From a virus, in IMG/VR virus record IMGVR_UViG_3300028844_005117, positions 1-64,000 of that record: a stretch of DNA of 64,000 nucleotides. One strand, given 5' to 3'. Shown here in pieces: positions 1 to 56,832 of the stretch (position 1 is the first letter of the stretch; every line of letters begins with the position of its first letter). The notes under the pieces are model-generated. The model searched no databases. It saw only the letters and a program-made list of their open reading frames with translations, and was not told where the DNA came from. Both the position numbers and the translations under genes were made by a program.

Positions 1-123
1 ATACGCCTTATCTTTTATGGTTTTAATTTCTTCTTTGGTTAAATCATTGTTAACCTCAAGTTCGTTGACCACACATAGATTTGCGTATGCTTGTTTAAGC
101 GAATCTAATGTATTATTAATCAT
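1..123 (-). CDS. hypothetical protein (runs off window start)
   Basis: ATG at 123 overlaps the stop of the upstream ORF; frame open to position 1 (MINNTLDSLKQAY...). Confidence 0.5.
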   Translation of the reverse strand, partial: MINNTLDSLKQAYANLCVVNELEVNNDLTKEEIKTIKDKAY

Positions 124-359
124 TATTTATATATTACCTCAGTTGATAGTGTGGTGATGTGTGTAACACCGTCCATCGAATACCACTTAGTTACTGTTCC
201 AGAAAAATATTGTACATCAGAGATGTCTGTGGTTATTATTGTATCTGGATAGAACACCGTTATTGCTCCTATGACTTCATCTTCTGTGTGAGTTTTTTCC
301 TCGTCCATGATACAACTTGTCATGAATAACCCTAAACTTAATATTAATATCTTTTTCAT
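123..359 (-). CDS. small putative lipoprotein
   Basis: MKK + hydrophobic stretch + lipobox-like FMTSC. Confidence 0.6.
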   Translation of the reverse strand: MKKILILSLGLFMTSCIMDEEKTHTEDEVIGAITVFYPDTIITTDISDVQYFSGTVTKWYSMDGVTHITTLSTEVIYK

Positions 360-392
360 TTTATTATTTTTTATAAAGGTACAAATAATAAT

Positions 393-557
393 TCAATTAT
401 CCAAATTATCTTTATCTTTTTTTATTTCCTTTAAAAGTGATGGTAGTGCTTTTACCATCTTATATAGACCAGCATGTTTTTCTTCTTTTGAAATATGACA
501 TTCACAATTCTCAATTGTTTGTGGACATGTTGGACATTCTTCTACTTCTTTTTTCAT
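393..557 (-). CDS. 54-aa hypothetical protein with CxxC...CxC (not in ORF track)
   Basis: Hand translation MKKEVEECPTCPQTIENCECH...; ATGA overlap with the YopX stop. Confidence 0.55.
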   Translation of the reverse strand: MKKEVEECPTCPQTIENCECHISKEEKHAGLYKMVKALPSLLKEIKKDKDNLDN

Positions 558-1021
558 GATATTACTTTTGTTTTATATTCATCCCATTTCTCTTCAAATG
601 TATGTCCAATTACTTCACTATCGGTATGTCCAATAAATTTGAATCCCCTACCATCGCTATGTAAATTAAGTCCAAGTTGAACAGCTTGGAATCCACCATG
701 AAGCCAAATAACTTCATAATATTTAACTGTTGGGTTTCTGACAACAAGACCATTCTCATCCCATTCACCACCGAAGGTAATAATATCACCCTCGTATATA
801 TCTTTATTATCCTTAGATTGTAATCCAGTCCATTGTTGAAGTATTCCATTCAAATCATCAGTCTCTCCCCAATAGACAACTTTAGTATCCAGCCATTCTT
901 GACCACTACAGAAGTCCCATTTACCATTACCGTATAGATATATCTTAGTATTCTCATTTTCGTAGAAGTGTTTTTTACTTGGTTTATCCCACGCTCTGTA
1001 TTTATGTTCTCTAGTTTCCAT
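554..1021 (-). CDS. YopX family protein
   Basis: REHKYRAWD, QWTGLQSKDNKDIYEGDII and EVIGH motifs. Confidence 0.85.
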   Translation of the reverse strand: METREHKYRAWDKPSKKHFYENENTKIYLYGNGKWDFCSGQEWLDTKVVYWGETDDLNGILQQWTGLQSKDNKDIYEGDIITFGGEWDENGLVVRNPTVKYYEVIWLHGGFQAVQLGLNLHSDGRGFKFIGHTDSEVIGHTFEEKWDEYKTKVIS

Positions 1022-1023
1022 TG

Positions 1024-1359
1024 TTAATGTATTAAAATACTCTCTTTGGTATCGTGATATTTATCAAATCGCTCAACATCGTATTTAACACCGCCATTCC
1101 ACCCGTCTAACGCTTTGTAAGTACCAGCGTTAGGTCCACGCTCATATGTTGTCTGAATTACTGGTGTGTATATCCCACTAGCCTTAGTTGGGAATTGTAG
1201 ACCTCTAATTTCTGCTTCCTCGTCATAGTAGATTTGTTTCTTGGTACCTAATTCGATTTTTCTAATCATAATAGGTTGAACTGAACTATCTCTGAATGTC
1301 ATTACCTCTTGGTCTTGGTCATATTCTGACAATATCTTTATTAAATCTTTAACTTTCAT
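1024..1359 (-). CDS. hypothetical protein
   Basis: MKVKDLIKILSEYDQDQEV start is common in phage small proteins; tightly packed operon. Confidence 0.7.
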   Translation of the reverse strand: MKVKDLIKILSEYDQDQEVMTFRDSSVQPIMIRKIELGTKKQIYYDEEAEIRGLQFPTKASGIYTPVIQTTYERGPNAGTYKALDGWNGGVKYDVERFDKYHDTKESILIH

Positions 1360-1915
1360 AATTATATTTTTCTTTACAAAATTTCTTGAATTTGAATATT
1401 CTATCCCAAAGTGTCATCTTTTTAAAGTCAGTTATTATATAGTTATCAATACTATACATCCCTTTTACAATCTCTTCATTGTGACTCATTTCTTTCTTTG
1501 TTTCACTAAGTTTATGATTAAGGTCTAATATGTCTTTACAGAGTCTTAGACTATGTCCCTTAAAATCTTTTCTAAGTCCAACAATCTCACGACCATGTTC
1601 ACGTGATAATTCGAGATATCGATGGCGTTCGGTCTGTAATTTATCCTCATATTCTTCACAACTTCTCATGTAAGCATAGTTGTCGATTAGGACTGGCATT
1701 CTATCACCACCCATAAGCATCTTATTAGGTTGCTTAAGTGATATTGGAATCCCATTCTTATTTCCAACTTCTTTAAGTAATTGTCTAGCTTGATTCATAT
1801 TCCCACCAACAACAAAGAAGGGTTTATTATAATGTCTAGCACCCTCTTTTAATAGTGTGGTGTGACCAGCACCTCTAGAGGTCTTTAGATATGTGTATAC
1901 GTGTTCTTTTTTCAT
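1349..1915 (-). CDS. small P-loop/terminase-ATPase-like domain plus coiled coil
   Basis: SRGAGHTT (Walker A-like), VVGGNMNQA, VLIDN (Walker B-like). Confidence 0.5.
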   Translation of the reverse strand: MKKEHVYTYLKTSRGAGHTTLLKEGARHYNKPFFVVGGNMNQARQLLKEVGNKNGIPISLKQPNKMLMGGDRMPVLIDNYAYMRSCEEYEDKLQTERHRYLELSREHGREIVGLRKDFKGHSLRLCKDILDLNHKLSETKKEMSHNEEIVKGMYSIDNYIITDFKKMTLWDRIFKFKKFCKEKYNYES

Positions 1916-2076
1916 AATAATTTATTATAATCATCTGCTAAGATAGCAACATAGGTATCACCCCACCATCCAAATGCACATTCATCAAATACCTTCTCCA
2001 TCTTAAATTCCTTAGAGTTGAAGTTATTAATTTTAATGTATGTTGATTCATTAGGGAATCTTACGTGTATCTCCAT
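1912..2076 (-). CDS. 54-aa hypothetical protein (not in ORF track)
   Basis: MEIHVRFPNESTYIK...DDYNKLL; start and stop both overlap neighbouring genes. Confidence 0.6.
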   Translation of the reverse strand: MEIHVRFPNESTYIKINNFNSKEFKMEKVFDECAFGWWGDTYVAILADDYNKLL

Positions 2077-2603
2077 TATCTTCCAATTAAAAGTCTTCTA
2101 CGATTAGTCTTGATACCAATTATTTTAGTTAGTTCCGATAATACTTCCTTATCAATCCCATCAGCAAATTGCTCTGATAACATAGCCGTTAATTCAGCCT
2201 CAGCATCTGTATTAGATACTGTCCAACCATTACGACCAGTACTATTTTCACTGACTTTACGAATGGACCCATCAACACTCGTTAATTTCTTTACATAATC
2301 AGTAACAACTAACATATGACTATGACCAGCGTTACCAACAATCTTTATAATATTCTTATTTGATTCAGTGAATATTACTTTATACCTACTACCAAAAGAA
2401 CCGTTATTATAGTGTTCCAAGGATTCTATAATCTTTTTTATATTTGATGAAATATATAAAAGATTACCACCACCACTATTATATTTCCTATGGATAATAG
2501 CGGATAGTTCATTGATTTTAGTCATCAATGTTTGATTCCATGCAGATTGTGATGGAAAATTACCATTAGGGGGGTTATATGACCAAGTTAAATTACTACG
2601 CAT
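2076..2603 (-). CDS. permuted mini major-capsid-protein homolog
   Basis: WNQTLMTKINELSAIIH and DAEAELTAMLSEQ match the MCP at 36761-38530, but in reversed order. Confidence 0.85.
   Translation of the reverse strand: MRSNLTWSYNPPNGNFPSQSAWNQTLMTKINELSAIIHRKYNSGGGNLLYISSNIKKIIESLEHYNNGSFGSRYKVIFTESNKNIIKIVGNAGHSHMLVVTDYVKKLTSVDGSIRKVSENSTGRNGWTVSNTDAEAELTAMLSEQFADGIDKEVLSELTKIIGIKTNRRRLLIGR
2169..2207 (-). repeat. 39-nt exact inverted copy of MCP sequence 37901-37939
   Basis: Reverse complement gatgctgaggctgaattaacggctatgttatcagagcaa is identical to 37901-37939. Confidence 0.95.
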
Positions 2604-2769
2604 CTCTTAGTTTGTTTAGTAATATATAATTATCGTAAGTAAGTGTCACTTCAACATCCTTAGGTGTACGTCTTGAATGGTGCCACTTGATATCTATTTC
2701 ATCACCATAATATAGAATGTCTTTTAATTTATCCATACATTCACGTTTCACATATATTGTTATCTTCAT
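2596..2769 (-). CDS. 57-aa hypothetical protein (not in ORF track)
   Basis: MKITIYVKRECMDK...; overlaps both neighbouring genes. Confidence 0.6.
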   Translation of the reverse strand: MKITIYVKRECMDKLKDILYYGDEIDIKWHHSRRTPKDVEVTLTYDNYILLNKLRDA

Positions 2770-3149
2770 AATCCTATTAATAAAAGTTTTCGGTTTGTTT
2801 TAATTTCATCCTTAATTTCATCTTTAGTCATTATAGAATTGTACATGAACTCACTAAGTGGAATTGCCCTACCTCTAAAGCTTCTGATGGGGTTAAAATG
2901 TGTTGGGTCGTAGGTTGTTGGTCCGAAGTATAAGGAATCACCTTGTGGGTAAATAACTATCTTACTAAATGGGTTTCCTTCAATGAATTCCCTAATAGAT
3001 TTTCTATAGGTAAGCATCGGATACGTTTTATTGCTTACTTTTCCATTTTCATCACAATCAATATGTGTATATGTTGGCATGTCTACGACCTCAACCAACG
3101 GCATTTGTTCTAATTGTTCACGTGTATAATCTTCCGTTATTTGACTCAT
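2766..3149 (-). CDS. hypothetical protein with MCP C-terminal-like motif
   Basis: GPTTYDPTHFNPIRSFRGR resembles MCP TPTMYNPFNFAPVKGIMTR; ends IKTNRKLLLIGL. Confidence 0.7.
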   Translation of the reverse strand: MSQITEDYTREQLEQMPLVEVVDMPTYTHIDCDENGKVSNKTYPMLTYRKSIREFIEGNPFSKIVIYPQGDSLYFGPTTYDPTHFNPIRSFRGRAIPLSEFMYNSIMTKDEIKDEIKTNRKLLLIGL

Positions 3150-3167
3150 AATTTCTAAATATTAACA

Positions 3168-3246
3168 CAAATATATTATAAAAAACACTACCATGCAATA
3201 ATTTCTCAAAATAGATTGTATATATGAAAAGAATTTACTATATTTG
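3168..3246. promoter_or_regulatory. divergent Bacteroidota-type -7 promoter boxes
   Basis: TATATTTG on minus at 3168-3175 and on plus at 3239-3246 (TAnnTTTG consensus). Confidence 0.6.
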
Positions 3247-3700
3247 CACTGTGAAAATACTGACTAGATTATTTAGGAAAAAGAAAAATCATTATGATTT
3301 CAAATTTATGGAATTCGATGATGGGGATGCTTGTGCTAGTTTCACAACTAAACATGGGTTTGTTTATTTAGTTGAGTTGGATTGGGGTGATGGTGTTTTT
3401 GATGTGGAATTTGGTTTAATTAACGCTAAGATATACAATACAACTAACGCTCACGACCAATACAAGATTTTAAATACAATTAGTGAAGTGGTTAAGGTTT
3501 CGATTAAGCATGCTAAAAAAATGACTGGTGAAGAATTCCATAGTCTTGAATTCAAGAGTAGTAAGATTAGAAATGGTAATGAGGATAATAGTGATAAAAT
3601 CAGAAATAGATTTTTCATTAGATTTATTACCAGAGAATACCCAGATGCAAAGATAAGTCATCGAAAAGATGGGTCTGTCTTAATTAGACTTATTGGTTAA
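3224..3700 (+). CDS. hypothetical protein (true start probably 3251 or later)
   Basis: Long ORF; the promoter box lies inside the annotated 5' end. Confidence 0.7.
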   Translation: MKRIYYICTVKILTRLFRKKKNHYDFKFMEFDDGDACASFTTKHGFVYLVELDWGDGVFDVEFGLINAKIYNTTNAHDQYKILNTISEVVKVSIKHAKKMTGEEFHSLEFKSSKIRNGNEDNSDKIRNRFFIRFITREYPDAKISHRKDGSVLIRLIG

Positions 3701-4072
3701 CCTATCCAAGGCTTCAATTTCCCTTTCAGTTAAGTAATCAAGACCACCACGTTCACTTATTAGGTCTAGACCTTCATTGATTGTCTTAGGCACTCTAGTT
3801 AGATTTAAAAACCTTCTAAAGTTCTTTTGTTCTTCTTCAATAAATTTAGTGTTGAGTAATTTGTTTGTGAATGTTTCTGTTAACTCTATGCAAGCTATCT
3901 CTGTTTCATCACCAACACGCTTTCTTATATCGGCTGTTGTTAATTTAGTTTCTATACATACAATAACATCAGTAATCGATACAATAAGACTACACTCTGA
4001 TTCTAGTGTTTCCATTACAATATCCGAATCATTAATATTACCTGTCCATATAATATACCTAATAATCTCCAT
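3680..4072 (-). CDS. hypothetical protein
   Basis: ORF; C-terminal LDLISERGGLDYLTEREIEALD helical module. Confidence 0.7.
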   Translation of the reverse strand: MEIIRYIIWTGNINDSDIVMETLESECSLIVSITDVIVCIETKLTTADIRKRVGDETEIACIELTETFTNKLLNTKFIEEEQKNFRRFLNLTRVPKTINEGLDLISERGGLDYLTEREIEALDRLTNKSN

Positions 4073-4077
4073 ATTAA

Positions 4078-4920
4078 TTATGGTCTATTTAAAAAATATA
4101 ATTTATCGTATAGGTCTTCTCTATTCATAGCTTTGATTTCAGCATGTATCTTATCTGGATTACTTCTGAATAGATTCTTAAGTCTTTTGATTATTTTAGC
4201 TTCTTCTCTATATTTCTTATCAGCACCCTTAAGTTTAGCCGCTCCCTCTCTATCACCACCTTTAATCATGTCTATTCTTTGGATTGCAATATCTCTTAAT
4301 TTAGAGTCAATCTCAGTTTCATAATCATTAGTATCATGTGTTATCGGAGCACCTAGTTTATCAGCCTTTGCCTTTTTAGCCTCAGCCTTAGCAATTTCTT
4401 CTGGTGTATTTTTATTCTTTTGTATTTCTTCACCTTTGTTATCATCGTAACCAGCATTGTCTTCCATAAAATCTAGTATTGCACTACCCATGAAGAACAT
4501 TATTTTAGTCTTAGCATCTTCTGCTGGGGATTTCCCGATAGTTTTAAAGTTCTTTTCTGGACTATCATATTCTGGGTGTGCCATTCCTCTATTAGCTCTA
4601 ACATAAAATAATCTGACACGACCATTCTTTGTATCTTCATAATCACCAATCTTATTTTGGTAACCAATTCCAGTCTCACCAACTCTAAAGGTTCCATTAT
4701 CGCTAAGTCTACCAACATAAACACCTTCACCATCGTCAGTACCACCGTATGCATTTGGGTTTTGTTCGTAATCTTTTCTAGCTTGTATGATTTGTGCCCT
4801 CATGGTGTTAATCATACCTTGAGTAATATTCTTCTTATAGTTTTTATCCATAACTGGATTACTAGGGGTGTGACTAGCTTCTAATAAGACTCTTAATTTA
4901 TTTATTATGAATGACCTCAT
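4078..4920 (-). CDS. hypothetical late protein, possibly head-internal
   Basis: TATTTATA upstream (4934-4941 on minus); N-terminus MRSFIINKLRVLLEA. Confidence 0.7.
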   Translation of the reverse strand: MRSFIINKLRVLLEASHTPSNPVMDKNYKKNITQGMINTMRAQIIQARKDYEQNPNAYGGTDDGEGVYVGRLSDNGTFRVGETGIGYQNKIGDYEDTKNGRVRLFYVRANRGMAHPEYDSPEKNFKTIGKSPAEDAKTKIMFFMGSAILDFMEDNAGYDDNKGEEIQKNKNTPEEIAKAEAKKAKADKLGAPITHDTNDYETEIDSKLRDIAIQRIDMIKGGDREGAAKLKGADKKYREEAKIIKRLKNLFRSNPDKIHAEIKAMNREDLYDKLYFLNRP

Positions 4921-5003
4921 GGTATCTTTTTTATATAAATATTTGCTAATATCAAATAAATTGCGTATTATTGCATTAATTAATTAATTTAAATAAATTC
5001 AAT

Positions 5004-5180
5004 ATGAAAAAATTTAGTATAATAGTATTAATAATTATAGGACTTATCTTAGCCTTATATGTTGGTGGGTTCCTTGTAGGGATTACTATGATGTTGTTTA
5101 AGATAATGATTGGAGTTCTTGGACTTGGTTTATTCATTGGTGGATTCTACGTTGGTAGATGGACCAAAAAACAACAATAA
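5004..5180 (+). CDS. 58-aa two-helix membrane protein (not in ORF track)
   Basis: MKKFSIIVLIIIGLILALYVGG...; strongly hydrophobic. Confidence 0.65.
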   Translation: MKKFSIIVLIIIGLILALYVGGFLVGITMMLFKIMIGVLGLGLFIGGFYVGRWTKKQQ

Positions 5181-5181
5181 T

Positions 5182-6042
5182 ATGAAAGTAGAAAACTTTA
5201 AATATAATAGTGATAATATTAAAGAAGGTGATTGTTGTCCAGAGTGTAATGCACTTTGGGATGGTGGTGATATCTATGAACATTTTTTAGAAGCCAAGTT
5301 TAATCCCAATCACGAACAACATAATTATTATAAAGATAGAACTATCGATGAGATAAAAGAAACTGCTGGTGGTTATGGTTGGACTGAGGAAACCAAAGTT
5401 AGGTTCGGTAAGGTAATTGGTATGGATTGTTCAATGGACCCCTTAGATGAAAGTGAAGACGGAAAGTATGATGGTGTTTCTTATTGGCAATGTCCAAAGT
5501 GTCAAATAGCTTGGCATAGATTCAAGGGTACTAGAACTGATAGGTTCGTTAAGTCAGCGCAAGCTTCCGTCATTAAGAAACTTAATGAGTTAGAGGAAGA
5601 AAATGATAAGGAATCAAAGATAATCATCTACAATGCAATGCAAACACCAGATGGTACTATCATTGAATCTACGCACAGACATGATTATACAACTCATATA
5701 GATAAAAATGGTGAGACTTATATGGTTGACGGTGGGAATGAATACCTTAAGAGAAGTGTGAATGAGGTTCCAGCTAAGGACTTAACTATGTATCTTGAGG
5801 ATTGGACACCAGAATTCCATGAAAAGGCTAGGAAGGTAGTCAAACGAGGTGGTAGAGGTAAGAGTGGTGACCAACCACTTACTTGGGTTCCAATTTGTGA
5901 AATGAATGATGGTTGGGTAGCCGCAACTATCGATTATAATACTGACCGTGGAGCGGAAAGTCATTGGTTTACCTATTTATTAGTAAAGGAGGTTGAATAC
6001 CGAGAGAAAAATTCTATAACAATTGAAGAACAAGAAGTATAA
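5182..6042 (+). CDS. Zn-ribbon-containing two-domain hypothetical protein
   Basis: CPEC...WQCPKC N-terminal domain; C-terminal domain with ESTHRHDY...MVDGG; ATG at 5182 follows the previous stop. Confidence 0.7.
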   Translation: MKVENFKYNSDNIKEGDCCPECNALWDGGDIYEHFLEAKFNPNHEQHNYYKDRTIDEIKETAGGYGWTEETKVRFGKVIGMDCSMDPLDESEDGKYDGVSYWQCPKCQIAWHRFKGTRTDRFVKSAQASVIKKLNELEEENDKESKIIIYNAMQTPDGTIIESTHRHDYTTHIDKNGETYMVDGGNEYLKRSVNEVPAKDLTMYLEDWTPEFHEKARKVVKRGGRGKSGDQPLTWVPICEMNDGWVAATIDYNTDRGAESHWFTYLLVKEVEYREKNSITIEEQEV

Positions 6043-8504: not shown

Positions 8505-8672
8505 ATGAAATACACTAAAGAACAAAAAGAAAAGGCTGCTTTGAAGGCTGTTGAGATTATGGAAAATGTCAGTATAACATCAACCAAAAGTTCGAGTAGA
8601 CTTCAAAGTAGACTTATTAACGAGTTGTGTCTTCTGTATAAGGAAATTGAATTCCTTAAAGGTATGTTATAA
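8505..8672 (+). CDS. 55-aa hypothetical protein (not in ORF track)
   Basis: MKYTKEQKEKAALKAVEIME...; starts directly after the lipoprotein. Confidence 0.5.
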   Translation: MKYTKEQKEKAALKAVEIMENVSITSTKSSSRLQSRLINELCLLYKEIEFLKGML

Positions 8673-9059
8673 AATTTAAATAATATGAAAGATTTTTGGA
8701 AACCAATAGGAATGTACATAAGTAAATTTGTAAGAAAACCTAAGTACTTAAGAACACCTAAAAAATAGAAATATGAATTTATATAAAATAACATACAACG
8801 GAAATACTCAATACATAGTAGCTAAATCTTATCAAGGTGTTCACGATACATGGCATCTAGTAAAAGACAGATACCAAATAACTAATATTGAATTAGTAGA
8901 AGAAAATATAAAAATTGAGACCACTTAAATTATTTCTACATTTAATGATAATACTTCATTTAATTATGTCGTATCTATCAGTAGTAAACAACGGGAAGCA
9001 TCTATGGCTTTATCTATTCTTTGCTGGGTATTTTATCCTTAGATTACGAAATGTAGAAA

Positions 9060-9633: not shown

Positions 9634-9791
9634 TAATAGGATTTTTATTTGTAAAGGTAAAGATTAAAATGAGGTAATCATATGGTCACCAAACTCTTCC
9701 CAATCATCAATTTCATCTTCTGGTTCTTTTAACATAATAACTTTAAAAATAAATACTTGAAACTTTACTAAAAATAACGTATATTTGGGTA

Positions 9792-10115
9792 ATGGATAGT
9801 GAAGATAAATTAAGACGTTGGGTTGAGTATTCATTATGTGAATGGGCATTGGTAATATACCCAAGGTCTGGTTCTAAATCAACAACTTTCAATTCATTTT
9901 GTGAACGACTTAAAGAGTCAATAATAAATGATAATTTATCTAGTAGGGATAAAAATGTCTTAAGTTATATATCCTATAAGGCGAATAGAACGTTTTCTTT
10001 GAATGATAAAGATATTGGTGACATATGTTGTGGGTTCTTTATTAATGATAGATGGAATAGATACCAAAGGGCTATTAGATATATGAAAAAGGTTAACTGG
10101 GAATTAGTAGATTGA
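9792..10115 (+). CDS. hypothetical protein
   Basis: ORF with TATATTTG at 9780-9787. Confidence 0.55.
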   Translation: MDSEDKLRRWVEYSLCEWALVIYPRSGSKSTTFNSFCERLKESIINDNLSSRDKNVLSYISYKANRTFSLNDKDIGDICCGFFINDRWNRYQRAIRYMKKVNWELVD

Positions 10116-10392
10116 TTTAATTTTAATTCTACCAGCCTTGTATTCATATTCCTTCATTTTCAAGTATTCTCTTGCAACACCCCTTACTTTAGATATTGGG
10201 AAGACACCAATAAATGGTTTATGTGCGACCTCAGTTACACGCATGACCGCACCATCACGACTTTTACTTTGACCTTTAACATATTGATAAACTGCTGGAT
10301 GTGAGTCCAGTATCATTATGTTCATAGCTTTCCATATTAATGTTGTATCCGTCATTGAATATTTAATGTATTTATAAATAAACATAGAAATT

Positions 10393-11974: not shown

Positions 11975-13402
11975 ATGAGTAAATTAGACGTAACCGAAAG
12001 GTTAGCATTTTTAGCGGAAAAGTTTGATGTGTTTGAAACAGATTCAGATGGTAACGCTAATGATAAACGTAATAGTTTACATGAGGAAGGGTGGGAAAAA
12101 ATAAAAATATATGGTGGTCGTGAAAATCACTTGGTGATTGCTGTAGTATCATCAAAACCAAATAAAAGGGGGTTCCCTATTATTAAAGTTAGTGTAGCAT
12201 ATAATGTATTTACGGCTATGGTTGGTGCTGACCCGACACCGAACAAAATTTGTTTACAATGGATGCTTAATACATTCTGTAGAGATTTAAAGGAGGGGTA
12301 TGATGCTGAGGCAAGACGATTTGTTGAAGAGGACTTACCACAAGCTAATGAATACTTAACACTATTCGAGGCGAATAAAAGAAAGAAGAAGTTTAGGGAG
12401 ATGGCTGAATATAGTCTTAAGGGGTTTAAGGACATCACCAACATAAATGAATATAGAAGTTTAAGTCAATTATTTGATGCGGTAGACCCGTTCATTATAA
12501 GAGACCCAAGCGAGATTGAAAGTATAATGAATAGATATGTAAATATGGGACAAGCAACAATACCGTTTAAAGATAGACGATACACGGTATTTGTTCCTAA
12601 AACATTGGATGCTAATGTTATCTTTGATAGGTTTTCAAGTTGGTGTACAGCTAAGGCTGGTAATGGCATGTTTAAAAATTATACTGAGAATTATAGAAAA
12701 CCCAATGGTGATAAAGCAGATATCTACATTGTCATTGATAATGGGTTCTTTGAAGGGTTAAATGAGAATATTTATCAGTTACACTTTGAAACTAGACAGA
12801 TTAAGGATAGGAGTAATAGTATACATAAGAATACTGATTTATATGATGAAGTCTTAACAAGAAGTGTTGGGTTAACAAACTACTTAGGTAGTGAGTTGAT
12901 GGGGATGGCTAAGGATTTTAAAGACGGTGTTGATAGTAACTATTATATTGATATCTTGACTGAGTTTGGGTTTACTGAATCGTTGTTTGAATTCTTTGAT
13001 GAAGAGACACCGATTATAAAGATTGATTCTGGGACTTCAAATAAGAAGCGTAAGGTACCTAAATTACCAGATGTATCTAGATTTAAAGAATTAGAGATGA
13101 TGGTTATTATGGATTCATCATTATCAGTTTTACATCCATCGATTGGGTCATTGAAAAATTTGATGCTTCTTTCGTTGAATGGGAATAAAATAAAGGAATT
13201 ACCAAGTGAATTAGGGAAACTTAAAAACTTAGAGTTTCTTAACTTAGTTGGGAATCCCATTACGGTTATTCCAGAGTCAATTAAGATGTTAGATAAGTCT
13301 AGAGGTGGGAAACTATATAGACTAGCGATAAATAAAAAAGATATTAGTGAGAACAATTATCAAAAATTAGTGGAACTATTACCAAGTGTAAAGTTTAACT
13401 AA
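11975..13402 (+). CDS. leucine-rich repeat protein with N-terminal WCT-motif domain
   Basis: C-terminal LxxLxLxxNxIxxLP repeats; SSWCTA motif; TACCTTTG box at 11951. Confidence 0.8.
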   Translation: MSKLDVTERLAFLAEKFDVFETDSDGNANDKRNSLHEEGWEKIKIYGGRENHLVIAVVSSKPNKRGFPIIKVSVAYNVFTAMVGADPTPNKICLQWMLNTFCRDLKEGYDAEARRFVEEDLPQANEYLTLFEANKRKKKFREMAEYSLKGFKDITNINEYRSLSQLFDAVDPFIIRDPSEIESIMNRYVNMGQATIPFKDRRYTVFVPKTLDANVIFDRFSSWCTAKAGNGMFKNYTENYRKPNGDKADIYIVIDNGFFEGLNENIYQLHFETRQIKDRSNSIHKNTDLYDEVLTRSVGLTNYLGSELMGMAKDFKDGVDSNYYIDILTEFGFTESLFEFFDEETPIIKIDSGTSNKKRKVPKLPDVSRFKELEMMVIMDSSLSVLHPSIGSLKNLMLLSLNGNKIKELPSELGKLKNLEFLNLVGNPITVIPESIKMLDKSRGGKLYRLAINKKDISENNYQKLVELLPSVKFN

Positions 13403-18090: not shown

Positions 18091-20523
18091 TTATTTTGTT
18101 TTTGGTTTCTTCTTTTTGATAACCTTTATCACTATCTTCTCGGACTTTTCATCATAATCAATCCTTAGTGTATCACCTTCTGATGCGTTACCAGATAAGA
18201 CTTCATCAGCAATTGGGTCTTCAACATATCGTTGGATTGTTCTAGCTAATGGTCTTGCACCGTACTCTGGGTCATATCCTTTATCTGCTAAGTACTTTAT
18301 AGCATTCTTACCCAATTTAAGTTCAAACCCCATTTCATTTATCCTTCCTTCTAGGTTTTCTAATTCATTATAAATGATTTTGTGAATATCTTCTGAACTA
18401 AGTCCGTTAAATATAACTGTATCATCAATTCTATTAAGGAATTCTGGTTTGAATTTCTTCTTGAGTGCTTTTTCGATAATATTTCTTGCTCGTTCTTCCT
18501 CATTTGCAATCTCTGCACCAGTATTGAACCCTAATCCTGTTCCGAATTGAGATAATTCTTTGACACCAATGTTAGATGTCATGATGATAAGTGTATTTCT
18601 AAAGTTTACCTTCCTACCAAGTCCATCAGTCAAGTGACCTTCATCTAGTAGTTGTAAAAGTAGATTGAATACATCGTCATGTGCTTTCTCAATCTCATCA
18701 AATAAGATAACTGAGTGTGGTTTTCTACGAACCTTTTCAGTCAATTGACCACCTTCTTCGTAACCAACGTAACCTGGCGGTGGACCAATAAGTCTAGACA
18801 CTGAGAACTTCTCCATATATTCAGACATATCCATTCTAAGAAGATTATCTTCATCACCGAATACATGCTCTGCTAGTAATTTAGCTAGGTATGTCTTACC
18901 AACACCTGTAGGTCCAAGGAAAATGAATGAACCAATTGGTTTCTTACGGTCTTTAATTCCGATACGACTTCTCTTGATTGCCTTAACAACTTTATTTACT
19001 GCATCATCTTGTCCAATAACTTTACCAGTTAAGTCTGTATCCAATTCAAGTAACTTCTTACTTTCTTGTGTAGATATCTTAGATAATGGAATACCAGTCA
19101 TCATTGATACAACCTCACTAATCAAGTCCACATCAACAACAGTTTGTTCTTTAGACATACTCTCAATCCAAATATCCTTAGCTTTAGTCAACTCATCGTT
19201 TATTTTACGTTCCTCATCTCTAAGTGCCGCAGCCTTCTCGTATTTCTGTTTAGTAACAACTAACATTTTTTCCTCCTTGATAACATCTATCTTAAGTTCT
19301 AGTTCCTTTATTTCCTCTGGAGTCTCAACATTTACATTTGTTGATGAACCAGCCTCATCCATGATGTCAATTGCCTTGTCTGGCATTGCTCTATCAGAAA
19401 TATATCTATCAGCCATTTTAACACATTCCTCAATAGCTTCATCAGTATAGGTAACCTTGTGGTGTGCCTCGTATCTATCACGAATATTTTTAAGTATTGT
19501 AATTGTTTCCTCTAAACTTGGCTCTTCAATTAATACTTGTTGGAATCTTCTTGTAAGTGCACCATTGTTTGATGCATCTAAAGAACCAGAAGCATTACCA
19601 GCCCCAACAATTGTATGGATTTCATCAATAAATAAAACAACATCTGGGTTCTTCTTTAATTCTTCAAGGATAGCTTTCATTCTTTCCTCAAATTGACCTC
19701 TATATTTTGTACCAGCAACAATAGATGCTAAATCCAATGAATATAATTTCTTATCTAAAAGTGTTATTGGTGCCTTACCATCTTTGATTAGTTGGGCTAA
19801 CCCTTCAACGATGGAAGTTTTACCAACACCTGGCTCACCGATAAGAATCGGATTATTCTTCTTTCTTCTAGATAGTATTTGTGAAACTCTCTTGATTTCT
19901 TTCTCACGTCCAATAACATGGTCAATCTTCCCTTCATCAACAGCCTTGCTGATATCACGACAAAAGTTATCTAAGACTGGTGTTTTAGTAGCACTAATTT
20001 TCCCCTTAGATTTTTTACCACCAGTTCCACCTTCGTTACCAAAATCATATTCATCTTCATTTGTGGAATTATTAATATCTTCTCTCATTTGTTTAATCAT
20101 TTGTTTAAAACTCTTATAATTCACACCCATATTTAATATAATCTTCTTAGTTTGTGTATTATTCTTTAGGATTGCTAACATTAAATGTGTGGTGTCAATC
20201 ATAGTATCATCAACTCCTTCACACTCTTCATCAACAGAATTAAAGATAAGTTTGGTTATTTTACAGAATGGTCTCTTTAACTTCTTAGCATTAACTAATC
20301 TAGGTGTTAAGTCTGATTTGTTTAAGTGGTCATAGACTAAGTCATAGAGTATATTGATATCTACACCTAGGGCTTCTAAAATATCAATACATTTATTGTT
20401 ATTATTTTTTATTATCGAAAGTGTGATGTGTTCTGGTCTAACATTTACATCATCCATATCTTTCGCTATAACCATCGAGTCATTGATGATTCTTTTTACT
20501 TTTGGTATTATTTCTCTCTTCAT
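18091..20523 (-). CDS. clpC: ClpC/ClpB-family AAA+ chaperone with internal in-frame deletion
   Basis: Clp-N domain, GEPGVGKT, FIDEIH, UVR coiled coil, GPTGVGKT, GYVGY, FDEIEKAH; start MKREIIPK at 20523 with TATATTTG upstream. Confidence 0.9.
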   Translation of the reverse strand: MKREIIPKVKRIINDSMVIAKDMDDVNVRPEHITLSIIKNNNNKCIDILEALGVDINILYDLVYDHLNKSDLTPRLVNAKKLKRPFCKITKLIFNSVDEECEGVDDTMIDTTHLMLAILKNNTQTKKIILNMGVNYKSFKQMIKQMREDINNSTNEDEYDFGNEGGTGGKKSKGKISATKTPVLDNFCRDISKAVDEGKIDHVIGREKEIKRVSQILSRRKKNNPILIGEPGVGKTSIVEGLAQLIKDGKAPITLLDKKLYSLDLASIVAGTKYRGQFEERMKAILEELKKNPDVVLFIDEIHTIVGAGNASGSLDASNNGALTRRFQQVLIEEPSLEETITILKNIRDRYEAHHKVTYTDEAIEECVKMADRYISDRAMPDKAIDIMDEAGSSTNVNVETPEEIKELELKIDVIKEEKMLVVTKQKYEKAAALRDEERKINDELTKAKDIWIESMSKEQTVVDVDLISEVVSMMTGIPLSKISTQESKKLLELDTDLTGKVIGQDDAVNKVVKAIKRSRIGIKDRKKPIGSFIFLGPTGVGKTYLAKLLAEHVFGDEDNLLRMDMSEYMEKFSVSRLIGPPPGYVGYEEGGQLTEKVRRKPHSVILFDEIEKAHDDVFNLLLQLLDEGHLTDGLGRKVNFRNTLIIMTSNIGVKELSQFGTGLGFNTGAEIANEEERARNIIEKALKKKFKPEFLNRIDDTVIFNGLSSEDIHKIIYNELENLEGRINEMGFELKLGKNAIKYLADKGYDPEYGARPLARTIQRYVEDPIADEVLSGNASEGDTLRIDYDEKSEKIVIKVIKKKKPKTK

Positions 20524-20529
20524 ATCTTC

Positions 20530-20593
20530 CAAATATACTACAAATTTATTATTAAAACAACCTTGATTTTTAATAATAAATAGCGTATATTTG
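20530..20593. promoter_or_regulatory. divergent Bacteroidota-type promoters (clpC / KTSC-thyA)
   Basis: TATATTTG on minus 20530-20537 and plus 20586-20593. Confidence 0.65.
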
Positions 20594-20633
20594 GAGTATA
20601 ACGAAAATAACAAAAAAGTAAATCTTAAAACAC

Positions 20634-21086
20634 ATGTTAGTAAAAAGAACAGAAAAAGACGGAGTAGTAAATGCACTCTATGATTCAAGCAATATTCTAG
20701 GCTCAAAATGGAATGGAAAAAATTTAACCGTACTCTTTAAGCACGGTGCATCATACACGTATAACGATGTATCTAAAACAGACTATATGAGATTCGAGAC
20801 TGCTGACAGTCAAGGTGTGGTATTAAACGCTAAGATTAAAGCATATAGCTTTACTAAGAATGATGCTGTTGATGGTCAAGAATTAATCAACGAAGTAAAC
20901 CAAGCTAAAGCTGATACCCTTACTAAATTTGAGGAAGGTCTTGTTGATGAGATGAGACTTATTGTTTCTGCTTATGAAACTAGTCCAATATTAACTAAAC
21001 AATCAATCGAAAGACTTGGGGAGATGCTTGTAAAGCATGGTGAGTTAGGTGGAGCCGCATCATTAAAGCTTTGTGCTTGTGATTAA
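20634..21086 (+). CDS. KTSC-domain protein
   Basis: SSNI...LTVLFKHGASYTYNDV...ADSQG. Confidence 0.75.
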   Translation: MLVKRTEKDGVVNALYDSSNILGSKWNGKNLTVLFKHGASYTYNDVSKTDYMRFETADSQGVVLNAKIKAYSFTKNDAVDGQELINEVNQAKADTLTKFEEGLVDEMRLIVSAYETSPILTKQSIERLGEMLVKHGELGGAASLKLCACD

Positions 21087-22095
21087 TGTTGATAAGGGTT
21101 ATACCGACCTTTTGTATAAGATAATTGATAATGGTGTGATTAAAGAAAATAGAACTGGTACTCCTACTATTTCTATTTTCTCACACACACTTGAGATTGA
21201 TATGTCTGATGGTTTTCCTCTTCTTACAACTAAGAAGATGTTTTCAAAGGGTATTATCCATGAACTACTTTGGTTCTTAAACGGTGACACCAACGTAAAA
21301 TACCTTGTTGATAATGGAGTTAATATTTGGACACCAGATGCATATAAAAAATTCGAGCGGTTAGATTGGTATGATACTGGCTTCGATGAGATGTCAAAGG
21401 ATAAGTATTCAGAAAAGATTAAGTCAGATAAAGACTTTGCCGATAAATGGGGTGAGTTAGGTCCTATTTATGGTCACCAATGGAGAAAGTGGAATGGTAA
21501 TGTAGACCAAATTAAAGATGTAATTGATAAGCTGAGGTTTAATCCAGACTCTCGTAGAATTATGGTTAGTGCTTGGAACGTTAGTGATTTAGATAAAATG
21601 ACACTACCACCTTGTCATTGGTCCTTCGAGTTATATACTGAGGAATTGACTGATGAAGAAAGGATAGAATGGCTTAATACTCATAACGTATTTGTTTCTA
21701 AAAGTCAAAGTAACGAAGATGGTACCCTAACAGAAAGTGGTAAGAAACAACTAGATAAAATAATCCCAAAGCGTAAACTTTCACTTAAGTGGCACCAACG
21801 TTCGGTGGATACATTCTTAGGACTTCCATTTAACATAGCTAGTTATGCATTGTTGTTAGAGATGTTTGCACAACAATGTAATATGGTTCCAGATAAGTTA
21901 ATCGGTGACCTCACCAACGTACATATCTATACGAATCATCTAGAACAATCTTTAGAACAAATTGGTCGAATACCAATGAAGTTATGTAAACTTAAATTGA
22001 AAAAAGCTGATGATATCTTTTCGTATACGTTTGATGATGTTCAGTTTCTTGATTATGAGTCACATCCACCCATAAAGGGTAAGATATCCGTTTAA
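21073..22095 (+). CDS. thyA: thymidylate synthase
   Basis: RTGT, FPLLTTKK, ELLWFL, LPPCH, QRSVDTFLGLPFNIASY, HIY. Confidence 0.97.
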   Translation: MLVINVDKGYTDLLYKIIDNGVIKENRTGTPTISIFSHTLEIDMSDGFPLLTTKKMFSKGIIHELLWFLNGDTNVKYLVDNGVNIWTPDAYKKFERLDWYDTGFDEMSKDKYSEKIKSDKDFADKWGELGPIYGHQWRKWNGNVDQIKDVIDKLRFNPDSRRIMVSAWNVSDLDKMTLPPCHWSFELYTEELTDEERIEWLNTHNVFVSKSQSNEDGTLTESGKKQLDKIIPKRKLSLKWHQRSVDTFLGLPFNIASYALLLEMFAQQCNMVPDKLIGDLTNVHIYTNHLEQSLEQIGRIPMKLCKLKLKKADDIFSYTFDDVQFLDYESHPPIKGKISV

Positions 22096-27175: not shown

Positions 27176-28081
27176 ATGGTAAGTATTGATATTACAAAGG
27201 AATACATTAAATGTGTTAATAACCCTCAATATTCTATTGAGAATTATTTTAAGATTTGGAATAACGTGGTAGGTGATTATGTACCGTTTAAGTTGTTATC
27301 AAATCAAAAACTAGTTATAGACGGTTACGAAACAAATAAACTAAATATAGTTAAGAAATATAGACAAGCTGGTATATCATCTATAAGTGAGGCTTATTTG
27401 TCACATAAGGTGGCTTTCAGTGACCCAGACAACCCAGAATTGGTTATGGTGGTATCAAATAAGTTAGATTTGGGTAAACATATGTTAGCTAAGATGAAGA
27501 ACTTTTTATTAACTTTACCTAGATGGGTTTGGGGTTCAGAATACTATGGTTCAGAAGAAAATGAAAGTAAGTCAATTTTTATAGTAGACAATCAAGTAGA
27601 AGCTGTATTACCAAATGGTTCTATGATTAAGGTCACCTCATCCAGACCAGATGCATTCAGAGGGTGGGCACCAACATATATATTAATGGATGAGGCAGCA
27701 TTTATTGATAAGAACGATGAGTTATTTATGGCTACTTATGCTTCACTAGCTGTTGGTTGTAGGTTGATTATGGTTTCAACCCCTAATGGTATGGATGGAT
27801 TATTCCATAAAACTTTCATGGGTGTTGTTTGCGGTCAAAATAATTTCAATTTAATTGAATTGAACTGGTGGGATGATGAACGATTCAATAAAGACCTTAA
27901 ATGGGTTATTGAAATAGATGGTAAAATAATCGACACCTTAATTGGGGTTTTACCAGAATATTATGATAAAGTAATACTTGCTGGTTATAAACCAACAAAT
28001 GAATGGTATGAAAAAATGCGAATAATGCTTAATTATAACGAAAAACAACTCCAACAAGAGATGGGTGGGTTTGTGATTTAG
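27176..28081 (+). CDS. terminase large subunit paralog, ATPase domain only
   Basis: KYRQAGIS, LMDEAAF, STPNG; colinear with the N-terminal half of TerL; no nuclease domain. Confidence 0.85.
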   Translation: MVSIDITKEYIKCVNNPQYSIENYFKIWNNVVGDYVPFKLLSNQKLVIDGYETNKLNIVKKYRQAGISSISEAYLSHKVAFSDPDNPELVMVVSNKLDLGKHMLAKMKNFLLTLPRWVWGSEYYGSEENESKSIFIVDNQVEAVLPNGSMIKVTSSRPDAFRGWAPTYILMDEAAFIDKNDELFMATYASLAVGCRLIMVSTPNGMDGLFHKTFMGVVCGQNNFNLIELNWWDDERFNKDLKWVIEIDGKIIDTLIGVLPEYYDKVILAGYKPTNEWYEKMRIMLNYNEKQLQQEMGGFVI

Positions 28082-28092
28082 AGCTATTTGGG

Positions 28093-28132
28093 CTTGTTAA
28101 CATATTTATAATAAAAAGAATATGTTAACAAG
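28093..28132 (+). promoter_or_regulatory. 14-bp hairpin overlapping the late motif and sequestering the terL ATG
   Basis: cttgttaacatatt / aatatgttaacaag perfect inverted repeat; TATTTATA at 28103-28110. Confidence 0.75.
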
Positions 28133-29936
28133 AGCCGAAATATATAGTGAGTATGCCAATTGTTTGAAGGACCCAATCTATGCTATCGAAAACTTTTTAG
28201 AAACTTTCGATAAGACACAGGAAGGGTATGTACCATTCAAATTATTCCCAAGGCAAAGGCAGATTGTTAACGCTTATGAGAAACATAGATATAATTTAGT
28301 TACCAAGCCAAGGCAAGCTGGTATATCTACCACTACACAAGCTTATATGGCGGTTAAAGCTGGTTTTGCTGATAAGGATAACCCAGAGGTTATACTTGTA
28401 ATTGCAAATAAGCTTAAATTATCACAAAAATTTTTAAAGGGTATTAAGGATTATCTAAAGCAATTACCAAGATGGATATGGGGTTCTGATTATTATGGTA
28501 CTGAAGAAAACGAAAGAAAATCAATCTTCGTTGTTGATTCTAAGATAGAAATCGAATTACCTAATGGTTCACAAGTTATTGCCGTTGCGACATCGGAAGA
28601 TGCACTTCGTGGATATACACCAACATATCTTGTATTTGATGAGGCAGCCTTCATTGATAATGGTGACGCTGTATATGCAGCTGCCATGTCATCAATATCT
28701 ACTGGTGGTAATGTGATTCTAATTTCCACACCAAACGGTATGGACCCACTTTACTATAAAACATACGAACAATCTAAATCTGGTGATAATAATTACCATA
28801 TTGTTGAAATGCGTTGGTTTGAAGACCCACGATACAATAAAGACCTTAGATGGTACAAGAAAGTTGAGGGTGATGATAATGATGATATTGTAGAGAAGGA
28901 AGTTGAGTTTAATCTTGAATCTTATCTTAAGAGAATTGAAGATGATTGGAAACCAACATCAACATGGTATGAGAACATGTGTATGGCACTTAATAATAAT
29001 TCTAGAAAGATTGCACAGGAGTTAGATGTATCATTCTTAGGTTCTGGTGGTAACGTTATTGAAGATGAGACCATTGAAATGCACGATAAGAAAAATGTTC
29101 GTGACCCTAAATTCGTTGAGGGTGTTGAACAAGAGTTTTGGATATGGGAAGAACCTATAGTGGACCATAAATATATTATGGGTGTCGATGTATCAAGAGG
29201 TGATGGTGAAGATAGTTCAACAATAGTTATCATTGATTTTACAACCATGGAACAAGTAATGGAGTATCAAGGTAAAGTACAACCAGATATACTAGCTCAA
29301 TATGTATATGATTACGGTAATATGTACAACGCATACACTGTTGTCGATATTACAGGTGGTATGGGTGTCTCAACGGTACTTAAGTTGATTGAATTGGATT
29401 ATAGTAAGAAACTATTACATCATGATAAACAAGCAATGGGTAAGGTTTTAGCTAACCAATCTAGATTAGGTTTGGTTAAGGAGAATGAAAAGGTGCCAGG
29501 TTTCAACGCCAATGGAGTTCGTCTTCCAATGATTTCAAACATGGAAAAGGTATTAAGAGAGAACTTCGTTAAGATTAGGTCAAGAAGAATGGTTTCAGAA
29601 ATGAAAACATTTATATATAAGAATGGTAGACCAGACCACATGGATGGTTACCACGATGACCTTCTTATGTCATTGGGTATGGCTATGTGGGTTCTTGAAT
29701 ATTCATTTAAAAACCTTAAGAAAGCTACGGCTCAAAATAAAGCGATACTTAACAGTTGGACCACTGGTGGTCAGAATGTTGAGGAAATCAATAATAAAAG
29801 TTACGATGGTGGATTTGTATCTAAGGATAACAAGGGTAAGAAAACTGCTCCTAGACCAAGATTTAATCCTAACGTATCAAACAACATGCAAGACCCTAAC
29901 GGGGACTACATGTGGTTATTTAGTGGAACAAAATAA
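28122..29936 (+). CDS. terL: terminase large subunit (T4 gp17-like)
   Basis: KPRQAGIST, VFDEAAF, STPNG; nuclease motifs GVDVSRG and HDDLLM. Confidence 0.95.
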   Translation: MLTRAEIYSEYANCLKDPIYAIENFLETFDKTQEGYVPFKLFPRQRQIVNAYEKHRYNLVTKPRQAGISTTTQAYMAVKAGFADKDNPEVILVIANKLKLSQKFLKGIKDYLKQLPRWIWGSDYYGTEENERKSIFVVDSKIEIELPNGSQVIAVATSEDALRGYTPTYLVFDEAAFIDNGDAVYAAAMSSISTGGNVILISTPNGMDPLYYKTYEQSKSGDNNYHIVEMRWFEDPRYNKDLRWYKKVEGDDNDDIVEKEVEFNLESYLKRIEDDWKPTSTWYENMCMALNNNSRKIAQELDVSFLGSGGNVIEDETIEMHDKKNVRDPKFVEGVEQEFWIWEEPIVDHKYIMGVDVSRGDGEDSSTIVIIDFTTMEQVMEYQGKVQPDILAQYVYDYGNMYNAYTVVDITGGMGVSTVLKLIELDYSKKLLHHDKQAMGKVLANQSRLGLVKENEKVPGFNANGVRLPMISNMEKVLRENFVKIRSRRMVSEMKTFIYKNGRPDHMDGYHDDLLMSLGMAMWVLEYSFKNLKKATAQNKAILNSWTTGGQNVEEINNKSYDGGFVSKDNKGKKTAPRPRFNPNVSNNMQDPNGDYMWLFSGTK

Positions 29937-56136: not shown

Positions 56137-56832
56137 TTATTTTATTTTCTTTAGAATGAACCCAATATCATTGGTATCTAATGGGTTATATGTGTGTCTA
56201 GGTGATGCGTTAAAGTCGAATCCGATATCTTCAAGACCACATTCTTTAAAGGTCTTTAACCACCATTCATTAGACTTAATACATTGATGGTTCTTACCTT
56301 CAACCAAATTAATCAGACAGATAAAGACACCATCATCATTAAGATGTTTCTTAATGTTATTCAAAACACTAGGTATATCTTCTGGTTTCGGGTGCTCTAA
56401 AACATCCCAAGCGGTGATAACATCAAACGTTTGTTCACCAGTATCGTTAAACATTTGGAATGGTTTTGTGATGTCTGCTTTAAAGAGACACTTATCCTTA
56501 AGATTCAACCAATTATCATGAATGTCCTCAGTAAGTTTACTGGTATCACCAATATACCTAGGTTGTGGTTTTATTCTATTTTTCGATATTTGTATCATCT
56601 TAGATAAATCACTACCTTCAACCCCAACAGCAACATTACCCATATTATAGACATCAACTACTGATTGACCACCAGCACAACCTAAATCCATATAGGAAAA
56701 GTCTTCTTTGTTGGTGATTCGTTTTAGTTCCTCTAAGTATACTGGGTTAGAGTGATTATTTTGTGCAGCCCCTTGTATTGGATTTTCAAAGTCTGGTCCA
56801 ACAGCATTCGGGTGATTAGTTTCTATTCTCAT
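56137..56832 (-). CDS. class I SAM-dependent methyltransferase
   Basis: MDLGCAGG; FDVITAWDVLEH. Confidence 0.85.
   Translation of the reverse strand: MRIETNHPNAVGPDFENPIQGAAQNNHSNPVYLEELKRITNKEDFSYMDLGCAGGQSVVDVYNMGNVAVGVEGSDLSKMIQISKNRIKPQPRYIGDTSKLTEDIHDNWLNLKDKCLFKADITKPFQMFNDTGEQTFDVITAWDVLEHPKPEDIPSVLNNIKKHLNDDGVFICLINLVEGKNHQCIKSNEWWLKTFKECGLEDIGFDFNASPRHTYNPLDTNDIGFILKKIK

Follow-up and report, generated by a model that had tools for sequence, protein, structure and literature searches.

Capsid and terminase proteins are main triggers of bacterial innate immunity. Capsid-sensing systems include CmdTAC and Lit, the latter by way of the Gol peptide of T4 gp23. CapRel (PMC13728456) and Avs7 and Dsr1 (PMC13581612) are also described as host sensors of capsid protein. 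Here we describe ORF175, an open reading frame (ORF) in the first 64,000 nucleotides (nt) of the IMG/VR virus record IMGVR_UViG_3300028844_005117 (this stretch is referred to as the window), which carries two blocks of the phage's own major capsid protein (MCP) in swapped order and very probably adopts the fold of the capsid A-domain. The tentative interpretation developed below is that ORF175 is a capsid mimic that serves in phage–host or phage–phage conflict. The source record is 72.7 kb in length and is estimated to be ∼20% complete, and the source phage is therefore probably a jumbo phage.

ORF175 carries capsid protein blocks in permuted order

The comparison of ORF175 with the MCP involves four features:

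2076–2603, minus strand: ORF175, stand-alone permuted capsid A-domain protein (BLASTP to the MCP, Pfam Gp23, family)
2292–2591, minus strand: A-domain core, residues 5–104, equivalent to MCP 414–533 (BLASTP, AlphaFold2, Foldseek)
2124–2213, minus strand: spine-helix block, residues 131–160, equivalent to MCP 379–408 and located behind the A-domain (BLASTP, Gp23 profile)
36761–38530, plus strand: gp23-type MCP, parent of the copy (Pfam Gp23)

ORF175 begins with ATG and encodes 175 amino acids (aa). The MCP gene encodes 589 aa (Pfam Gp23, E = 7.4e-71) and lies in a head module of T4 type that also includes genes for the large terminase, the portal and the prohead protease. In BLASTP alignments, ORF175 residues 5–104 match MCP 414–533 (block 1; 39 of 122 columns identical, 32%, E = 8e-14) and residues 131–160 match MCP 379–408 (block 2; 21 of 30 identical, 70%, E = 1e-9). 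Block 1 represents the axial A-domain of the capsid protein and block 2 the long 'spine' helix that precedes it. The element order is swapped in ORF175 because the equivalent of MCP 379–408 sits after the equivalent of MCP 414–533. The Gp23 profile repeats this swap, with ORF175 residues 24–65 aligned to profile positions 222–263 and residues 131–160 aligned to positions 167–196. The permuted order proposed in an initial annotation of this DNA is therefore borne out by both the BLASTP blocks and the profile coordinates, including the location of block 2 ahead of block 1 in the MCP. The alignment that it reported for block 1 is also real, but extends further than the residues ∼5–78 and MCP ∼414–508 given there.

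The N-arm, the E-loop and most of the P-domain have no counterpart in ORF175, where the Gp23 profile matches only at positions 167–196 and 222–263. ORF175 thus does not present the N-arm, E-loop, P-domain and A-domain in order, as a complete canonical HK97 fold would, and the claim that the remainder of this fold is missing holds. As a whole, ORF175 is a marginal match to Pfam Gp23 (PF07068), scoring 25.2 bits where the cut-off is 24.4 (E = 1.3e-5). ORF175 and the MCP form one of just three paralogous pairs in an all-against-all BLASTP comparison of the 330 ORFs in the 72.7-kb record, and their genes are 34.2 kb apart, in agreement with the 34 kb from the head module stated initially.

A 509-aa ORF at 35204 was considered as the capsid protein and rejected, given the assignment of 36761–38530 by Pfam Gp23. 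This ORF (35204–36733, plus strand) lies between the prohead protease and MCP genes and encodes an acidic protein with no Pfam match and with seven 18-nt tandem units (repeats at 35719–35884); it is probably the scaffold.

The AlphaFold2 model of ORF175, made with a 23-row alignment, has a predicted local distance difference test score of 86–95 at residues 21–100 and is poor over the remainder. When this model is compared with known structures using Foldseek, T4 gp23 chains are the top matches (best E = 1.1e-3, probability 1.00). The model of a relative, P0007 (predicted template modelling score 0.68), gives 16 Foldseek matches at E ≤ 1e-3 (best 1.1e-5, probability 1.00), and those listed are all HK97-fold capsid proteins. 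Both models match T4 gp23 first and have the three-dimensional fold of the A-domain, which is the relationship to gp23 that the initial annotation had proposed to look for by structure prediction. No usable match for ORF175 came from the ESM Atlas, which itself models the protein poorly. Taken together, we consider it very probable that ORF175 is a real member of the family described below and has an A-domain fold.

A family of mini A-domain proteins

When 1.84 billion cluster representatives were scanned in full with HMMER, 259 matched at E ≤ 1e-3, with 26 at E ≤ 1e-10 and 1 at E ≤ 1e-30. A word-indexed search returned a single relative, P0003, which is an intact protein of 170 aa that is 72% identical to ORF175 and is encoded on an 821-base contig. 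The initial annotation had noted that an absence of intact homologs would argue for a decaying duplication; intact homologs clearly exist. Among the best 150 of the 259, which were sorted by rules and by reading by eye, ∼110 are proteins of at most 230 aa (90–230 aa) built on the same A-domain core, a few of which may be capsid fragments at contig ends. The remainder comprises ∼12 capsid proteins or fragments, 18 proteins of 231–400 aa and 7 longer non-capsid proteins. We refer to the small proteins as minis.

Near the N-terminus of the small members is the core W-D-Y ... D-W-N-Q-T-L-x-T-K-I-N-Q-x-S-A-x-I-H-K ... G-G-A, a stretch that is also the best-conserved part of capsid proteins and whose residues are nearly invariant across members that are only ∼30% identical. 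About 60 of the listed members close with the strand G-x-I-x-I-x-N-Y, similar to the strand at the capsid C-terminus, and ∼22 terminate in a basic-Leu tail. Against a profile of the core (N-terminal 80–110 residues) from 112 small members, ORF175 scores 1.3e-37; this value is partly circular because ORF175 itself was in the profile, and its membership is independently backed by alignments. In the tail subfamily, 10 of 23 members reach E ≤ 0.01 against Pfam Gp23.

The permuted arrangement, which the initial annotation had proposed to search for in related jumbo phages, recurs in relatives. In 5 of the 23 tail-subfamily members in alignment A2 (ORF175, P0007, P0008, P0009 and P0033), the helix follows the domain. 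The order of elements in P0007 is the end of the spine helix, the W-D-Y strand, the A-domain, the capsid C-terminal strand (N-N-R-F-F-G-V-I-K-V-D-G), the spine helix and the tail. This is the order expected if the C-terminal half of the capsid protein was duplicated in tandem and then trimmed, and the helix relocation in ORF175, where the C-terminal-strand element is degenerate, is by this reading of the alignments a circular permutation and a trait of the subfamily. Other rearrangements are found among larger proteins. P0013 (497 aa) is a shuffled capsid-like protein with an N-arm, an A-domain, a strand plus spine helix and then a Y-D-P-x-x-F block, P0122 (548 aa) is another larger capsid-like protein with the same shuffled order of blocks, and P0004 (324 aa) contains two mini A-domains in tandem.

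A scan of IMG/VR with a two-sequence alignment found no close relative, and a wider scan may have missed relatives. Two IMG/VR contigs (L050 and L051) encode MCPs that are 95% and 90% identical to that of the window; they come from close relatives of this phage but end short of the mini gene. Judged by its sequences, the family is large, unnamed and carried by uncultured, mostly marine, T4-like phages. Our literature search found no phage-encoded capsid-fragment protein and no such inhibitor of capsid sensors, and the mini A-domain family is undescribed.

Genomic placement and links to the terminase

The neighbors of ORF175 are small accessory-type genes. Separation of a mini gene from the MCP gene is seen again in a 299-kb record judged to be 91% complete, with the mini gene at 94.5 kb and the MCP gene at 292–294 kb. 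At locus L005, the mini gene lies among dihydrofolate reductase-, thymidylate synthase- and GIY-YIG-like genes, as assigned by eye without a family scan.

Several observations connect the minis to the large terminase subunit (TerL). In P0088, P0097 and P0121 (449–460 aa), the mini A-domain is fused to a terminase ATPase half that is 24–25% identical over ∼200 residues to the TerL of the window and to a 301-aa paralogue (E = 3e-13 and 8e-13). This paralogue (27176–28081, plus strand) is ATPase-only, is 43% identical over 300 residues and is encoded directly upstream of the full TerL (28122–29936). In L005, the mini gene is found within 5 kb of two further ORFs: a 98-aa ORF (8536–8832) with only a spine-helix-like piece (Gp23 profile 171–196, E = 0.005) and a 187-aa ORF (9637–10200) that by eye is terminase-ATPase-like, with Walker-like motifs in which Walker B reads Asp-Asn instead of Asp-Glu. 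ORF188 of the window (1349–1915) was considered as a terminase-ATPase fragment and dropped, with a BLASTP E of 0.09 at Walker A and an hhalign probability of 0.4% (E = 0.15).

Elsewhere, the window encodes a 475-aa protein whose residues 361–453 form leucine-rich repeats (11975–13402, plus strand), a thymidylate synthase (21073–22095, plus strand, E = 1.9e-93) and a three-domain C-methyltransferase (56829–58061, minus strand).

A conserved C-terminal tail

The tail of ORF175 and the two ORFs preceding it on the minus strand are located as follows:

2079–2120, minus strand: C-terminal tail of ORF175, residues 162–175, basic-Leu end (same in P0003 and run X4)
2766–3149, minus strand: ORF127, first gene of the run, with the tail and an MCP 533–561-like block (BLASTP)
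2596–2769, minus strand: ORF57, overlapping both neighbors, with a hydrophobic-basic C-terminus (short likeness)

ORF175 and ORF127 have near-identical C-terminal tails, a feature seen in no other ORF of the 72.7-kb record. The tail follows the pattern N-R-x-L-L-L/I-I/T-G/R, is present in all 23 members of alignment A2 no more than ∼6 residues from the end, and is identical in P0003 and in both of the ORF175 alleles described in the next section. In ORF127, a further block resembles MCP 533–561 (10 of 29 identical, pairwise BLASTP E = 0.002), and both this block and the tail are invariant in its two homologues. The predicted complex of ORF175 with ORF127 scored 0.00, where the mark is 0.32, a result that counts neither way. 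A structural clasp formed by the tail and the N-terminal motif of other minis was rejected as an explanation; the termini of ORF175 and P0007 are low-confidence coil in the models, and for P0007 this applies to both ends.

The lone locus returned by the metagenome scan, L085, is on a contig that is syntenic with the window. It contains homologues of ORF54 and ORF188, an 84-aa ORF beginning with L-L-L-R-R-R, a mini with both an N-terminal I-L-L-R-R-Y-R-K and the tail, and a 93-aa ORF with an unrelated body that terminates in the tail and has no overlapping gene behind it. The existence of a tail carrier without an overlapping gene indicates that the tail is a protein-level motif. We therefore rejected an origin of the tail as a side effect of the ribosome site of the following gene, given also that carriers vary in how far the tail lies from the next ATG. 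Searching the C-termini of 5372 ORFs from 81 sources (80 loci and the window's own record) with a regular expression gave 13 matches, two of which are convincing by eye (ORF127 and the 93-aa ORF of L085); the expression did not pick up ORF175 itself. Just before the start of ORF175, the last 10 residues of ORF57 contain Y-I-L-L-N-K-L-R, a short likeness to the N-terminal I-L-L-R-N-R-K motif on other minis that may reflect a shifted gene boundary.

These distributions suggest that the tail is a portable terminal tag. Its strictly terminal position suggests a tag that is read from the free end, for example a degron, which this position would suit equally under the tag rules of ClpX and FtsH. No ClpP was found in the partial 72.7-kb record.

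Natural alleles and probable exchange with the capsid gene

Sequence runs that contain this stretch carry 'marine metagenome' labels, and they reveal a second allele of ORF175 that differs mainly over one segment:

2119–2268, minus strand: variable cassette, residues 112–162, linker plus spine-helix copy (runs X4 and X3; P0003)

In run X4, which is from another marine study, a DNA contig of 848 bases (depth 3.8) shows no difference from the window over the 489 bases at 1630–2118, has 135 other bases in place of 2119–2268 (residues 112–162) and has 11 differences over 2269–2492. A contig from run X3 terminates at 2118. P0003 likewise departs from ORF175 across the residues of the variable cassette, and its helix block is degenerate. 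Eight of the 11 differences are listed, none of them synonymous, and the resulting changes (K57D, E60K, H64F, F70I, S72G and T101S) are exactly the substitutions in P0003. If the run X4 contig encodes P0003, then at most 1 of the 11 differences is synonymous, including the three that are unlisted. With 45 synonymous and 177 nonsynonymous sites over the compared stretch, our own arithmetic from the site counts gives P ∼0.01 for this outcome at a nonsynonymous-to-synonymous rate ratio (dN/dS) of 0.3, and strong purifying selection is rejected. ORF127 shows no such pattern of divergence in its two homologues. A concentration of change on ORF175 between two alleles suits a conflict gene, as far as can be read from these sequences.

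A diversity-generating retroelement was rejected as the source of the variation. The alleles differ by 15 nt in length with all four bases changed, which is not the pattern of a retroelement target, and RVT_1 had no match in the 72.7-kb record, which as noted is partial.

The helix block also differs from the A-domain block in its relationship to the MCP gene, with which it shares an inverted repeat:

2140–2207, minus strand: repeat arm containing an exact 39-nt run at 2169–2207 (repeat search)
37901–37968, plus strand: partner repeat arm inside the MCP gene (repeat search)

In the A-domain block, 14 of 37 identical residues are encoded by identical codons, which indicates old divergence. In the helix block, the codons are identical at 17 of 20 identical residues (Fisher p = 8e-4 versus the A-domain block). 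The repeat is 68 nt in length with 90% identity and is the longest of six reported in the window. Recent gene conversion from the capsid gene into the helix block is likely on these grounds, at roughly p = 1e-3 when the conservation considered below is allowed for, but is not proven.

Promoters and timing

A promoter-like site precedes the gene run that includes ORF175:

3168–3198, minus strand: host-type promoter-like site, TTG, 20 nt, TATATTTG (sequence, octamer)

At the head of the operon, a TTG at 3196–3198 is followed by a 20-nt spacer and a TAnnTTTG box at 3168–3175 (minus strand; TATATTTG), ∼20 nt ahead of the ATG of ORF127. The arrangement matches the Bacteroidota promoter consensus. 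The head genes carry T-A-T-T-T-A-T-A-W-W-A-A ∼20–26 nt before the ATG. This late-promoter-like motif, TATTTATAWWAA, is enriched in the window (30 occurrences versus 15.7 expected, a count reached in 0 of 100 shuffles) and is also found before 4920 (minus strand) and 7404 (plus strand). No late motif is present on the minus strand between 350 and 4929, and a sigma-70 and terminator scan of 1–5200 gave chance-level results. ORF175 thus lacks a late motif in addition to being 34 kb from the head genes, and the operon with a host-type TAnnTTTG box and no late motif described initially is recovered, with the box as a positional match.

A proposed role as a capsid mimic

Although we hold this interpretation only tentatively, we favor the idea that ORF175 is a conflict-related capsid mimic. 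ORF175 would be made before the capsid protein, would mimic the most conserved surface of the capsid and would engage a partner that the capsid protein would otherwise encounter. The most likely partner would be a host sensor of capsid protein, with a rival phage's capsid protein as a less likely one. By passing the mimic to a protease or chaperone, the tail would limit its lifetime or location. That ORF175 is specifically a decoy for a host capsid sensor is possible but doubtful. The initial annotation had proposed an early mimic acting either as such a decoy or as a poison of competing capsids; what stands of this is a maintained, capsid-derived, permuted and remote gene with a host-type box and without the late motif. 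PADLOC gave no match for ORF175.

More speculative, and somewhat more doubtful than the decoy role itself, is a general version of the model in which early 'trigger mimics' are widespread in marine T4-like phages as cut-down copies of the proteins most often sensed by bacterial immunity, namely the capsid A-domain, here permuted, and the terminase ATPase half. These mimics would sometimes be fused, gene conversion would keep them in step with the resident genes, and the terminal tag would time their removal. Before the genuine capsid and terminase proteins are made, the mimics would blind the sensors of both. Stand-alone copies of capsid domains are a concrete, testable candidate for the shielding of trigger proteins that cannot be changed. 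Should the decoy idea be wrong, the family would still offer a natural circular permutant of an independently folding HK97-fold domain.

Several points weigh against a mimic. No member was found in cultured phages by tblastn of ORF175, P0007 and P0021 against 50,697 phage records, where the only matches were annotated capsid genes and one unannotated record. At most 1 synonymous difference in 11 has P ∼0.3 at dN/dS = 1, and neutral drift is not rejected; the initial annotation regarded a dN/dS near 1 as a sign of decay, and the data are compatible with neutrality while rejecting strong purifying selection. The case for gene conversion is weakened by two comparisons. The 39-mer is well kept in the capsid genes of other phages (median best match 33 of 39 in 81 sources), so that the probability of the run arising by chance is nearer 1e-3 than the 2.6e-5 calculated from codon usage alone, and the baseline fraction of identical codons is already 0.50–0.63 in capsid genes with 61–78% amino-acid identity. 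The early timing of ORF175 is probable, with promoter motifs as the only evidence for it. TAnnTTTG is not enriched in the window (100 occurrences versus 91 expected), and the box is therefore only a positional match. In two metatranscriptome libraries, exact or one-difference contigs cover 2181–2457, 2988–3154 and 1281–1488, touching parts of ORF175, ORF127 and ORF188, but their depth is ∼2, DNA carry-over is possible and there is no silent control stretch. Finally, PMC13601566 (2026) reports that isolated terminase ATPase domains are enough to activate EcAvs2 and Upx, and that vs.8 of T4 was toxic together with EcAvs2. A fragment that fits a sensor may therefore trigger it rather than block it.

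Alternative roles

An unlikely alternative, though the strongest of those we considered, is that ORF175 assists capsid folding or assembly, with the mini binding nascent or misfolded capsid protein and the tail recruiting DnaK or the phage's ClpB-like unfoldase. T4 gp31, which adapts GroEL for gp23, provides a comparison for a helper of this kind. If gene conversion holds the helix to the sequence of the resident capsid protein, this would suit such a self-directed role, and the window does encode an 871-aa ClpB-like two-ring AAA+ protein (18091–20706, minus strand; Clp_N, AAA, AAA_lid_9, AAA_2 and D2-small domains), which scores 800.8 bits against TIGR03346, where the equivalog cut-off is 1232. 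The tail closely resembles NRLLLTG, a model substrate of DnaK. As a sequence pattern only, it also fits the heptamer that DnaK prefers (PMC2717214), which has basic flanks around a Leu-centred hydrophobic core and in which Ile or Met can also take the central place. DnaK sites need not be terminal, however, yet the motif is always within ∼6 residues of an end, and the concentration of change in the gene body between close alleles would be unexpected for a housekeeping helper.

Less likely again is a weapon against rival phages, in which the mini would join the capsid protein of a related, co-infecting phage during assembly and so ruin its capsomers, and in which the terminase ATPase half of the fused forms would spoil the rival's packaging motor. 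The turnover of alleles suits conflict, the fusions to the ATPase half exist and, as a matter of general structural knowledge, A-domains line the center of HK97-type capsomers. Most contacts within a capsomer are nonetheless made by the E-loop, P-domain and N-arm, which the mini does not have. The helix is, moreover, kept identical to that of the phage's own capsid gene, so that a weapon would poison its own capsids unless it were removed before late times.

We regard as improbable a place for ORF175 in the virion or procapsid, for example as an internal protein, at a vertex or as a decoration, with the tail serving to target it. Internal proteins of T4 do use a terminal targeting peptide, and ORF175 is capsid-derived. 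Against this, no late motif precedes the operon whereas the head genes carry one, the gene is 34 kb from the head module in this phage and about 100 kb away in another, and the neighbors are small accessory-type genes. That ORF175 is a functionless partial copy of the capsid gene in decay is highly improbable and is largely refuted by the HMMER family of 259 clusters and alignment A2: the degenerate helix block of P0003, the nearest relative, and the scarcity of synonymous differences (at most 1 of 11, compatible with relaxed constraint) would fit decay, but ORFs of similar size are intact across the clusters with a core that is near-invariant at ∼30% identity, the tail and both flanks are conserved and the neighborhood is conserved in L085.

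Comparison with known systems

Relative to the T4 gp23/gp24 family (PF07068), ORF175 has the same A-domain core sequence and predicted fold and the same spine helix, but represents only ∼130 of 589 residues, in permuted order, without an N-arm or E-loop and with almost no P-domain. It also differs from these proteins in lacking a late motif, in its distance from the head module and in its added terminal tag. The tails of ORF127, ORF175 and their relatives are similar to the DnaK substrate NRLLLTG in having Asn or a basic residue, a Leu-rich core, Ile or Thr and then Gly or Arg; the likeness covers seven residues, and the tails differ in being strictly terminal.

What ORF175 would have in common with CapRel, Avs7 and Dsr1 is the capsid protein as a shared immune trigger, one that a mimic could intercept. 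Those proteins are host sensors, whereas ORF175 is a phage protein. T4 vs.8 is comparable in kind: like ORF175, it is a shortened paralogue of a core virion-assembly protein, with a gene that lies apart from the structural genes (PMC13601566). Unlike ORF175, vs.8 is derived from the terminase, and it acts as a trigger and not as a blocker. The two are linked by the three fusions that join a mini to the ATPase half and by the 301-aa ATPase-only paralogue in the window, itself comparable in kind to vs.8. The mini A-domain family would also offer the unexplained terminase paralogues of the vs.8 type a first candidate partner.

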